Source: a virus
Lineage: Duplodnaviria; Heunggongvirae; Uroviricota; Caudoviricetes
DNA: 64,000 bases
Reading direction: 5' to 3' (one strand)
IMG/VR virus record: IMGVR_UViG_2565956713_000001
Below are positions 30,779 through 32,528 of the stretch, piece by piece. Position 1 is the stretch's first letter; each line of letters starts with the position of its first letter. The notes beneath the pieces were generated by a model that worked only from the letters and a program-made list of their open reading frames with translations, was not told the DNA's origin and did not search any database. Position numbers and translations under genes: made by a program.

Positions 30779-31446
30779 ATTAGTGTAATATCGCATCAAT
30801 GAATCGTGATTTATAGAGCGATTTAGCTGTTAGCCGCGACAGGCGCGGCGGCAAGTATGGCGGGGTAGTGACTCCTTCCCCCTCATGACGCCGAGTTGCC
30901 AGGTTGACCATACGCCTAAGTGGCAACACCGAAGTGCGTTACGAGCTTCCAGTTTGCCCATCTTCGGGTGGGCGTTTTTTTCAGGGTTTTCGTCATGGTT
31001 AGCGACTTTGCGGCGGTTTAGAAACTGACCATTAAAGTAAATGCAAACGATGATCTGATGATGGTAGCGGCCTAAGAAGCCAGACGCCACGGGGTATGAG
31101 TCGTCCCCCGTCAAAAAATCGACCGCAGAGTGTCCCCGTCTGTGTATTAGGGAACGGGGAGGCACAACAGGTAAGGGCGCTGGTGTGATTAACCAGATGA
31201 ACGAGAAGGGGCCATCTGTTGGTCAGCGTCCTTTCCTGTTGCGTCTTCTTTTCAGCGTAACAGCGGTGCTTAACAGCACTTTGGGTACAGTTCCACGAAT
31301 TTACGGGTATATCCCGTCATGCTGAAAGCGCTAATCACGCTGGAAGCCAGGGTTATGCATCCCCTGTTACCGAATTGCAGCCAGGGCGCGGTGCGCCGAA
31401 AAGCATACGGAGGTGGAAGCCCTCGCCGGAGACGTACCCGGCAAGT

Positions 31447-31522
31447 GATGGTGTAGCTCAGCGGTTAGAGCGGTTGACTGTTAATCAACGGGTCGATGGT
31501 TCAAATCCATCCACCATCGCCA
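31447..31522 (+). tRNA. tRNA-Asn (anticodon GUU)
   Basis: Manual cloverleaf: acceptor GATGGTG/CACCATC, anticodon loop CTGTTAA, T-arm GATGG-TTCAAAT-CCATC, encoded CCA. Confidence 0.9.
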
Positions 31523-31524
31523 AT

Positions 31525-31600
31525 GCCGGTTTAGCTCAGTTGGTAGAGCGCCTGCCTTGTAAGCAGGATGTCAGCGGTTCGATTCCGTTAATCGGCACCA
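31525..31600 (+). tRNA. tRNA-Thr (anticodon UGU)
   Basis: Manual cloverleaf: acceptor GCCGGTT/AATCGGC, anticodon loop CTTGTAA, T-loop TTCGATT, encoded CCA; 2 nt after tRNA-Asn. Confidence 0.9.
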
Positions 31601-32528
31601 GCACAACAGGTAAGGGTATTTTGCGACGTCGGAGATCGCCGAGCTTGGCAGAGGGTTCGAATCCCTACGAAGTACCCTTACCGTTGTGATGAATGCGCAG
31701 GCTGATGCGCGAAAGACATTGCAGCTATTGCGGAAAAGAGCTGTTCGGCGGGGCAATTAAACGCCCGTGAGAGTCTGAAATAACCGCAAGCCGGAGATCA
31801 GCACCGGTCATCACAACACAACAGGTAAGGGCATTCTCCCTTATGGGGCTTGGCTTAAATGCATCGAGTGCTCTTACCGTTGTGATGAAGTGCAGCTCTT
31901 TGAAGCAACCAGAAGATAAGCATCTGGCTTCACAACATAAACCGCAGGAACGACCAATAAACGGTAGTCCGTATGGAGAACACCCCGTTGAGGAAGAGGC
32001 CTGGCCGGAACCGTAACCGGCACTACAACGTTGAGAACACTGGCGTAACGGGGTCATATCCCAATCTACGAATAAATGTTGCGTTGCAGCGTGACAACCA
32101 GTGTTCTCAACATTGTGGTGAATGCACAGGCTGATGTGCCGCAACTACAGTAGTGCGCGCTTTGCGGGGCTTGCTACAACCCTGTGTCGGAGTTCAGCAC
32201 CGACCATCACAGTTTGATTCTCTGGCATGAGCATAACGCTGAAATAAGTCCAGCCTGGTGCGGCCCGATCACCCGCCGTTAGCTCCACGAAACGGAGCAC
32301 GTAACAGGTAAGAGCATTCTCCTGTAACGGGTTCATATCCCAATCTACAGGTCCACCAAGAATGCTCTTTCCGTTGCGGTGAATGCGGCTAAGCGCACGC
32401 GGGGAAATGGTTATATCAGTCCATTCATTTCTCCTTGTTTCCCCGTCCACGGTGGATAACCAGCCAAAGGACACCGGGAGGCACCCGGCACCGCAGCTTT
32501 TTTATTCGTTAAATAATGGAGTGAGAGG

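Follow-up and report, generated by a model that had tools for sequence, protein, structure and literature searches.

A mosaic array of structured RNA cassettes with a tmRNA-like module in the putative ban operon leader of P1-like phages

Features of the stretch between dmt and the small membrane-protein gene

The window analyzed here is a 64,000-nucleotide stretch of viral DNA (IMG/VR record IMGVR_UViG_2565956713_000001) from a P1-like phage or plasmid, with 98% identity to RCS47 and vB_EcoM-813R1. Between dmt and a small membrane-protein gene, it contains a 1.7-kb RNA-array stretch in which a leader with a terminator-like hairpin is followed by a transfer-messenger RNA (tmRNA)-like module, called M here, and then by tRNA genes and repeated units of a long hairpin (H) and a spacer domain (S). 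An earlier note on this DNA, made from the sequence alone, had surveyed the region; the elements that it described were recovered, and it had overlooked module M (30986–31163), the structured spacers, and the alternation of H and S. All features below lie on the plus strand, which is the strand of the tRNA genes, unless stated otherwise.

The Pban promoters (P1ban/P2ban) and the bivalent C1 operator Op72 were located at 30746–30791 (operator at ~30762–30789) by position-for-position homology to the annotated P1 record AF234172, supporting the earlier placement of a C1 operator at the head of the region, and ATTGCTCTAATAAATTT was read directly in the window at this site. We regard the site as the predicted start of the transcription unit and, because the stretch begins at these promoters and this operator (as judged by homology to P1), assign it to the ban operon leader. 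The leader RNA (30796–30985) contains an intrinsic-terminator-like hairpin with a T7 run, found by a terminator scan at 30955–30981, where a hairpin and T-run had been noted at ~30950–30980; this terminator at the start of the array is presumably leaky. The leader RNA overlaps the "dicF-like region" annotated in P1 (~30886–30987). However, Rfam gave no DicF match at E ≤ 10 anywhere in the window, including this region, and the genuine DicF sequence of an Aeromonas phage contig (L008; L numbers are our handles for the collected loci) is unlike the window.

ARAGORN and Rfam called tRNA-Asn (GUU; 31447–31522; Rfam tRNA 74.5 bits) and tRNA-Thr (UGU; 31525–31600; 73.4 bits) as the sole tRNA or Rfam-grade genes in the stretch, in agreement with the claim that two tRNAs are its only credible genes. 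Matches to GOLLD, ROOL, and miRNA-type Rfam models were absent or spurious, and YrlA (Y RNA-like) had no match on the hairpin units, its single hit (27 bits versus 69) lying over the two tRNAs.

Two minus-strand open reading frames (ORFs) of 139 and 109 amino acids are also present, and the P1 and RCS47 records annotate plp and upl here. In relatives with 94–99% identity, frameshifting indels produced four to six stops in these ORFs, and coverage was broken by the gain or loss of units. Substitutions were flat over the codon positions (10/9/13 and 5/9/8), with no third-position excess, and neither ORF matched a Pfam family; furthermore, plp overlaps tRNA-Thr in P1. The check for protein conservation thus came out negative, in line with the earlier view that these ORFs only mirror the DNA repeats. 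Although the ORFs exist and are annotated, it is therefore highly improbable that the region encodes the proteins Plp and Upl as in the P1 reference annotation.

Tag frame, pseudoknots, and antisense arm of module M

Module M consists of a 5′ arm (30986–31031), an A-rich linker with a resume codon and tag (31032–31075), and a 3′ part comprising a stop-codon hairpin and two pseudoknots, A and B (31076–31163). The linker (..AAAGUAAAU) leads through a tmRNA-like UAAAU context into a GCA resume codon at 31043, and positions 31043–31075 read GCA AAC GAT GAT CTG ATG ATG GTA GCG GCC TAA, giving the peptide ANDDLMMVAA and the stop codon TAA (31073–31075). ARAGORN at 80% thresholds called the resume consensus and the tag, and the Rfam model tmRNA_permuted aligned the tag stretch at 24.1 bits versus a threshold of 47 (beta_tmRNA, 14.1 versus 84); at their default thresholds, neither ARAGORN nor Rfam detected M.

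More than 50 copies of M were collected through a pattern scan of viral contigs and subsequent searches. The 41 distinct copies in the first collection comprised 19 nucleotide variants encoding nine peptides, with nucleotide differences within one peptide class being synonymous by construction. Every copy read had exactly 10 codons followed by a stop, and all three stop codons occurred. Other tag forms were ANDDVVLMAA, ANDDLMLMAA, and ANDEQFLAVA, to which later scans added ANDNVFLAVA (Felix O1), ANDTQYLAVA, ANDDYKLAAA, and ANDDLMLQAA. An alternative small ORF in another frame (MQTMI) was rejected since its length, unlike that of the tag frame, was not conserved.

A per-sequence helix table and a covariation count were used to define the 3′ part. 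In pseudoknot A, the loop GUCG (31100–31103) of a stem at ~31089–31111 pairs with CGAC (31120–31123); in pseudoknot B, CGCAGA (31124–31129) pairs with UCUGUG (31139–31144) and the loop UCCCCGU (31133–31139) with ACGGGGA (31154–31160). In a 24-sequence alignment, 88.3% of the helix cells were paired, versus 38–52% in slid controls, and none of 500 shuffles did as well. Fourteen pairs changed on both sides, with contributions from both pseudoknot helices.

M thus shares with tmRNA (SsrA), including two-piece tmRNAs and the "TLD-only" (tRNA-like domain only) molecule of mycobacteriophage DS6A, the resume context UAAAU-GCA AAC GAY, a 10-codon tag that starts with AND and has a degron-like C-terminal end of small or hydrophobic residues, a stop codon within a hairpin, and H-type pseudoknots thereafter. 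It differs in having two pseudoknots after the tag instead of three, and a 46-nt arm antisense to host tmRNA plus a hairpin at the position of pseudoknot 1 (PK1); moreover, no acceptor stem, T-arm, or CCA was found. ARAGORN made no tmRNA call in any of the 46 M-bearing loci, while calling 28 ordinary tmRNAs in other loci, and a pattern scan for G3·U70, a T-arm, and ACCA found none in the 64-kb window and none in the P1-type loci among the M loci scanned. Several candidates for such a domain were discarded: the "tRNA-like domains" that ARAGORN gave for M at 80% thresholds were not credible, one in a T1-like contig (L116) proved to be an ordinary tRNA-Met, and the hairpin 5′ of M in lambdoid loci did not qualify as a permuted acceptor piece, since its cargo lacks conservation and P1 is without a hairpin at this position. 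No description of M was found in Rfam, in record annotations, or in the open-access papers searched.

In Felix O1-type phages, an 81-nt tRNA-like RNA was seen directly after M, with or without one hairpin between (Salmonella phage FO1a, L010 1254–1334; also L197, L200, and L232). Its acceptor stem, CGGGGCG/CGCCUCG, bears the identity set for alanine (G3·U70, A73, and an encoded CCA); the T-arm is tmRNA-like, and a normal D-arm is absent. In L232, the internal hairpin has undergone a compensatory change. ARAGORN gave no call on this RNA. Judging from these features, it could be a stand-alone tRNA-like-domain partner for M in this phage type.

In its 5′ arm, M carries sequence antisense to host tmRNA. 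An M profile matched the reverse strand of E. coli ssrA (nhmmer, E 0.0013), and the arm (GUUUUCGUC..GUUAGCGAC..UUUGCGG..UUUUUAGAAAC..UGACC) matches the complement of ssrA nt ~56–105, a stretch that spans the 3′ strand of PK1, the linker, the resume codon (nt 90), and codons 1–5. The arm–ssrA duplex of the window had a predicted energy of −44.8 kcal/mol (0 of 200 shuffles as good); over the variants, full-arm duplexes ranged from −37 to −46 kcal/mol, with no equally good shuffle among 200 in six of eight variants. The local alignment was equalled by two of 3000 shuffles. The arm was predicted to pair with host ssrA at −30 to −38 kcal/mol (Felix O1, −21.5), compared with −12 to −24 for its own M sense region. 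In 40 of the 41 distinct copies, the arm starts with GUUUUCG, which pairs with the host codons GAA AAC, and the phage tags are without those codons. When all segments were scanned against ssrA, rnpB, 5S, and tRNA-Glu in antisense and sense orientation, z exceeded 4 only for M–ssrA, U1–rnpB (U1 being the first hairpin unit), and generic T-arm hits.

Antisense oligonucleotides to ssrA are used in ribosome display to switch off tmRNA, and the M arm covers what we take to be the ssrA stretch targeted by the ribosome-display oligonucleotide. The analogy is functional, as is that with the phage anti-sRNAs AgvB and AsxR (sRNA, small RNA), in that pairing between RNAs neutralizes a host RNA; however, the oligonucleotides are artificial, and AgvB and AsxR target Hfq sRNAs, unlike M. 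The open-access literature searched contained no report of a natural antisense partner of tmRNA, a phage anti-tmRNA, tmRNA-like modules, or P1 leader RNAs.

Hairpin units, their cargo, and the spacer domains

The five long-hairpin units described earlier were all confirmed, at 31164–31243 (U1), 31603–31687 (U2), 31818–31883 (U3), 32026–32117 (U4, whose stem extends over 32021–32122), and 32301–32377 (U5). Their minimum free energies (MFEs) were −33.6 to −49 kcal/mol, with fold z-scores of −5.15, −6.05, −5.94, −7.74, and −8.09, respectively, and none of 200 shuffles was equally stable. The conserved flanks, 5′ ACAACAGGTAAG(G/A)G and 3′ CTTACCGTTGTG(A/G)TGAATGC, were recovered as repeat families D1, D3, and D4 and inverted repeats I1, I2, I6, and I7. 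U1 (ACAACAGGUAAGGG / CCUUUCCUGUUG; inverted repeat I2) and U5 (repeat family D5) have the standard frame, and U4 has an alternative one (ACAACGUUGAGAACACUGG / CCAGUGUUCUCAACAUUGU). A motif 3′ of the units, G(T/C)G(A/G)TGAA(T)G, was indeed present, but in four of them (U2–U5), not in three as had been counted. Also as described earlier, U1 ends ~200 bp before tRNA-Asn and U2 starts 3 nt past tRNA-Thr.

A near-constant frame, ACAACAGGUAAGRGCAUU...AGUGCUCUUWCCGUUGU, encloses widely varying interiors and forms a stem of 16–20 bp, often with a bulged A and a U·U mismatch. Nineteen different frame sequences from relatives retained a pairing of 10–20 bp (at least 15 bp in 17 of the 19), and pairing survived arm identity down to 10%. 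U1, U2, and U4 folded 7–10 kcal/mol better on the plus strand than on the minus strand because of G·U pairs. Together, these results support the notion that the hairpins are RNA-level structures on the tRNA strand. The frame motif CAGGUAAGGG (31168–31177, 31607–31617, and 31822–31831) equals rnpB 168–177, and GCUCUUACCG is antisense to rnpB 188–197, both with chance-level E values; a relation of the frames to RNase P RNA was rejected, since the CAGGUAAGGG match had an E of 1.8–7.

The interiors of the hairpins, referred to here as cargo, include parts that resemble tRNA. The T-arm-like sequence previously noticed in one unit, AGGGTTCGAATCCCT, lies at 31651–31665 within U2. The U2 cargo comprises a D-arm-like hairpin (GCGA-CGUCGGAGA-UCGC) and a perfect T-arm (AGGG-UUCGAAU-CCCU), the latter with a 13-nt identity to the T-arm of tRNA-Glu, and thus resembles a tRNA "elbow" that lacks both the anticodon arm and the CCA end; this cargo type also occurs in a lambdoid contig (L077) in a different frame. 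The combination of a T-arm with a UUCRANY loop and a GG D-arm was found in U2 only, not in U1, U3, U4, or U5. The U4 cargo holds ACGGGGUCAUAUCCCAAUC, a candidate mimic of the initiator tRNA anticodon stem-loop, and the U5 cargo carries this motif too, as ACGGGUUCAUAUCCCAAUC. The U4/U5-type motif ACGGGNUCAUANCCCAAUC was present in 19 loci, and its version in phage mEp460, GGGCUCAUAACCC, matches the anticodon stem-loop of E. coli metY (initiator tRNA) base for base, the three G-C pairs included. The U3-type cargo (CCCUUAUGGGGCUUGGCUUAAAUGCA) was found in P1-like phages, in lambdoid contigs directly 5′ of M, and in the Felix O1-type phage FO1a in an unrelated frame. Three cargo types therefore recur in different frames and phage groups, and some cargo appears, by comparison with tRNA sequences, to be a partial tRNA mimic (elbow or initiator anticodon stem-loop).

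None of the units is a tRNA gene by the searches made: U1–U5 had no tRNA call by ARAGORN at default or 85% thresholds and no Rfam tRNA match at E ≤ 10, and the relaxed ARAGORN search returned only Asn and Thr. No unit has a free 7-bp acceptor stem with a discriminator and CCA; the stems run to 16–20 bp with no CCA after them. The U1 cargo shares GGUGUGAUUAA with the second pseudoknot of non-P1 copies of M. It is also antisense, at 31200–31230, to nt 1–32 of rnpB (the 5′ end of E. coli RNase P RNA; 1 of 3000 shuffles), a relation that was not conserved in the P1 relative D6 or in L099 and is retained as a lead only. A unit of a Vi1-like phage carries a tRNA-Leu-like D-arm.

The spacers between the hairpins are not filler but conserved structured domains. 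Each hairpin 3′ arm runs into an S domain of ~125–190 nt, whose closing helix (GUUGUGAUGA...UCAUCACAAC) overlaps the end of the hairpin and has two compensatory pair changes among the copies (A-U to G-C and U-A to C-G). Thus, in the fold and covariation analyses, the hairpins beat their shuffles, the frames kept their pairing, and the closing helices of the spacers covaried. S_a (31683–31817; 135 nt), closed by the covarying GUUGUGAUGA/UCAUCACAAC helix, has two terminal hairpins with complementary loops (GCUGA/UCAGC); its sequence is 96–99% identical in the Klebsiella siphovirus IME207 and in lambdoid phages, the lambdoid copies coming right after the repressor gene and sharing its strand. S_b (31879–32025) and S_c (32113–32300; GUGGUGAAUGCACAGGCUGAUGUGC ... 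GGAGUUCAGCACCGACCAUCAC ...; fold −61.7 kcal/mol) are both folded domains that contain repeat families D1 and D2. S_b ends in a small hairpin, GCCGG-N8-CCGGC, plus CAC; this hairpin with CAC thus precedes U4, and it also closes the array. The same small hairpin (31425–31442) stands just 5′ of tRNA-Asn, at the end of the spacer that precedes the tRNAs (31244–31446; MFE −70.5 kcal/mol; repeat families D12 and D16), which is conserved in D6. In this spacer, a 12-nt perfect complement to E. coli tRNA-Glu nt 42–53 (CGGUAACAGGGG) was noted at 31361–31372; its BLAST E of 0.45 is not significant alone.

S_d (32372–32496), closed by the covarying helix GUUGCGGUGA/GCACCGCAGC and followed by a U-run, matched the Rfam family STnc100 (RF02076) at 37.8 bits (E 8e-6; model positions 31–147 of 206). 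Its homologous copies adjoin a DicF sequence and occur in D6. The alignment includes the closing helix and the CACCGGGAGGCACCCGGCACC 3′ hairpin, and both S_d and STnc100 lie in phage operon leaders; by contrast, S_a to S_c do not match the model, and an association with hairpin units and tRNAs is absent from the family description. By alignment, we take S_d to be an STnc100 relative rather than a certified member, and S seems to be of the STnc100/PasD type of prophage sRNA. STnc100 and PasD, both of them sRNAs of prophages, have been linked; Hfq RIL-seq and northern blotting revealed the Pas sRNAs, and the mature 5′ end of PasA is made by cleaving a longer transcript (bioRxiv 10.64898/2026.05.13.724894). 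In the contig named "Aeromonas phage AP1" (T4-like; L008 1128–1320), an E. coli DicF sequence is followed directly by an STnc100-type spacer, a juxtaposition due either to horizontal transfer or to chimeric assembly with an E. coli prophage.

Distribution, proposed role, and alternative explanations

Copies of M were found in 670 of 5426 complete E. coli genomes (about 12%) and in 292 phage records, of which 96 are from Klebsiella, 82 from Salmonella, 70 from Escherichia, 10 from Serratia, and the rest from others; judged by record size and taxonomy, these include Vi1-like, N4-like, T1-like, and P1-like phages. Wherever M occurred, its annotation never went beyond "hypothetical protein". A genome-wide pattern scan gave mostly chance matches and added only prophage copies from Enterobacterales (Rosenbergiella, Erwinia, Rouxiella, and Pseudocitrobacter). 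S domains, H frames, and cargo are common to P1-like, lambdoid, T1-like, N4-like, Vi1-like, and Felix O1 phages. The non-P1 loci that we read were ORF-poor, and four of the seven also had tRNA genes. In the T1-like contig L116 (IMG/VR; −90 to +720 relative to the tag), a promoter is followed by M, a hairpin, a spacer, a standard H, an S, a hairpin, tRNA-Met (CAU), and an intrinsic terminator. The sigma-70 consensus of this promoter (TTGACA-17-TAGATT) predicts a start a few nucleotides before GUUUUCG, which would place the antisense arm at the 5′ end of a stand-alone RNA operon. Among P1 relatives (L002 2325–2411; L003 2607–2693), vB_EcoM-Ro157c2YLVW has tRNA-Tyr (GUA) between Asn and Thr, and D6, whose record annotates its tRNAs on the wrong strand, has tRNA-Ser (UGA) after a spacer, suggesting that the array gains and loses tRNAs like other cassettes.

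Given the conserved and covarying structures, the tag frame, and the ssrA complementarity, we consider it fairly probable that the C1-repressed ban operon has this region as its transcribed leader, and that the leader is a mosaic polycistronic array of RNA cassettes which enterobacterial phages exchange with one another and which act on host translation. Once C1 repression is lifted, the array would be transcribed as one RNA and cut at the tRNAs by RNase P and at the frame stems or single-stranded junctions by RNase III/E, as in the DicF operon, and the resulting stable small RNAs would act on the host translation apparatus. The tRNAs could supplement or replace host tRNAs, and the cargo hairpins would present mimics of tRNA parts, probably to divert tRNA-binding enzymes or nucleases as decoys or competitors. 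The 5′ arm of M would anneal to the tag-coding region of host tmRNA and block the host tag frame, and M may offer its own resume codon and 10-codon tag in place of the host's.

M may simply mask the host tag frame, by analogy with the antisense oligonucleotides. More tentatively, M could be a "tag-swap" RNA that forms a non-covalent two-piece tmRNA of host and phage RNA, with the cargo hairpins as decoys of a similar anti-surveillance toolkit. In such a complex, the arm duplex with tmRNA nt 56–105 would replace PK1 and the host tag frame, the ~11-nt A-rich linker and resume codon of M would emerge at the host-equivalent position, and the host alanyl-tRNA-like domain with SmpB would deliver the phage tag (AANDDLMMVAA and variants). 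Since the tag frame is conserved and translatable, it argues for tag substitution over mere masking.

Several observations weigh against the array reading or parts of it. M is without a detectable tRNA-like domain and cannot rescue ribosomes by itself. The z-scores of the arm–ssrA duplexes are moderate (−3.6 to −5.8), with −1.5 for the Felix O1 copy and 0.1 for one variant; a portion of the arm folds into a cis hairpin as well (helix 1, with one covarying pair); and an ssrA fragment once duplicated in inverted orientation could have left the complementarity as a relic. The frames are nearly identical in sequence across phages, which recent horizontal spread explains as well as selection does. 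The cargo is heterogeneous, most types showing no recognizable mimicry, the S_d score is below the RF02076 gathering score of 47, and the stable RNAs from the array are ones that we infer.

Alternative explanations were also weighed. The hairpins might be processing or stability elements only (RNase III or RNase E sites, exonuclease blocks, or insulators) with the cargo as filler, an explanation that we hold possible but doubtful. Conservation is highest in the frame and the cargo is highly variable, the hairpins stand exactly at junctions, such as U2 at 3 nt past tRNA-Thr and the hairpin directly 5′ of M in lambdoid phages, and the bulged 16–20-bp stems resemble known RNase III substrates, as far as stem length and bulges were compared. 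DicF, moreover, is produced from a related leader by RNase III/E. Mere filler, however, would not be expected to recur as three cargo types in different frames and phage families, or to include a cargo equal to the initiator tRNA anticodon stem-loop. A DNA-level origin, in which the repeats are recombination linkers or cassette-exchange or MITE-like (miniature inverted-repeat transposable element) sites and the hairpins a by-product, appears unlikely to us: the pairing relies on G·U pairs present on the plus strand only, the elements lie on the tRNA-gene strand in every locus with accompanying tRNA genes, and no transposase, integrase, or target duplication was seen beside them. It would account for the 96–99% identity of S_a in P1-like, lambdoid, and Klebsiella siphoviruses despite differing flanks, for the gain and loss of whole units, and for identical frames that bracket unrelated cargo, but homologous exchange between conserved RNA genes would yield a similar mosaic.

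Rather unlikely as well, and a little more so, is that the region is neutral wreckage in a tRNA island, the hairpins being decayed tRNA genes, as the earlier note had alternatively proposed, and M a decayed tmRNA fragment. U2 does keep a T-arm and a D-arm-like hairpin, the Vi1-like unit keeps its D-arm, genuine tRNAs (Tyr and Ser) occupy equivalent cassette positions in relatives, and unit number varies among P1-like genomes. Conversely, no unit scored as a tRNA even under relaxed thresholds, unrelated virulent phages with compact genomes retain cargo and M with high identity, compensatory changes maintain the stems and pseudoknots, and the tag frame always has 10 codons and a stop; decay is thus disfavored. 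The other part of the earlier proposal, a family of stable structured RNAs, fared better, in that the strand bias, the preserved frames, the recurring cargo and spacers, and the STnc100-like spacer support structure at the RNA level, with only some of the cargo being tRNA-like.

The array reading also has precedents. Faubladier et al. reportedly described in 1990 a long non-coding leader of the dicB operon that is processed to small RNAs (DicF), and the DicF/dicB leader of Qin-type prophages is likewise a long non-coding leader of a repressor-controlled phage operon; DicF differs in being a base-pairing sRNA that targets ftsZ, unconnected with tRNA or tmRNA mimicry. In the T4 tRNA region, the stable RNAs species 1 and 2 are co-transcribed, and GOLLD and ROOL are large phage non-coding RNAs near tRNAs. 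As in the window array, these are structured non-coding RNAs interleaved with phage tRNA genes and presumably matured by tRNA-processing enzymes, but they have no sequence or Rfam relation to the window units, which are short, repeated, and modular.

Even in P1, a textbook phage, the annotation of this 1.7-kb stretch still shows two doubtful ORFs, and the elements of the stretch form a reusable RNA "parts list" common to many enterobacterial phages, including virulent phages of the therapeutic type (Felix O1, Vi1-like, N4-like, and T1-like). If the proposal is true, phages manipulate trans-translation via an RNA, M would be a natural tmRNA inhibitor or re-programmer, and there would be a handle on why tmRNA matters for phage growth. 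The mimics of tRNA parts may also bear on the arms race between tRNA-cleaving defense systems and phage tRNAs.

In a 2014 census, mycobacteriophages and Bacillus phage G were the only phages with ssrA (PMC4131195). Ordinary one-piece tmRNA genes occurred in many of the viral contigs collected here (L011–L250, IMG/VR), the first ARAGORN scan calling 28 and the second adding more; their tags include ANDERFALAA, ANDDSFTPMALAA, and ANDEQFALAA. This suggests that phage or prophage tmRNA is far commoner than this census indicated. In phage mEp460 (L004 470–658), Rfam matches to C4 antisense RNA (83.6 bits) and to isrK (67 bits) lie close to the antirepressor gene, apparently a P1/P7-type immI-like module in a lambdoid background. 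Downstream of the array in the window (32529–33573), there are a 78-amino acid membrane protein and a 275-amino acid lipoprotein-like ORF, where reference P1 has tciA-tciB-tciC, and a tRNA (CAU) follows at 33601–33676, as P1 trnI.

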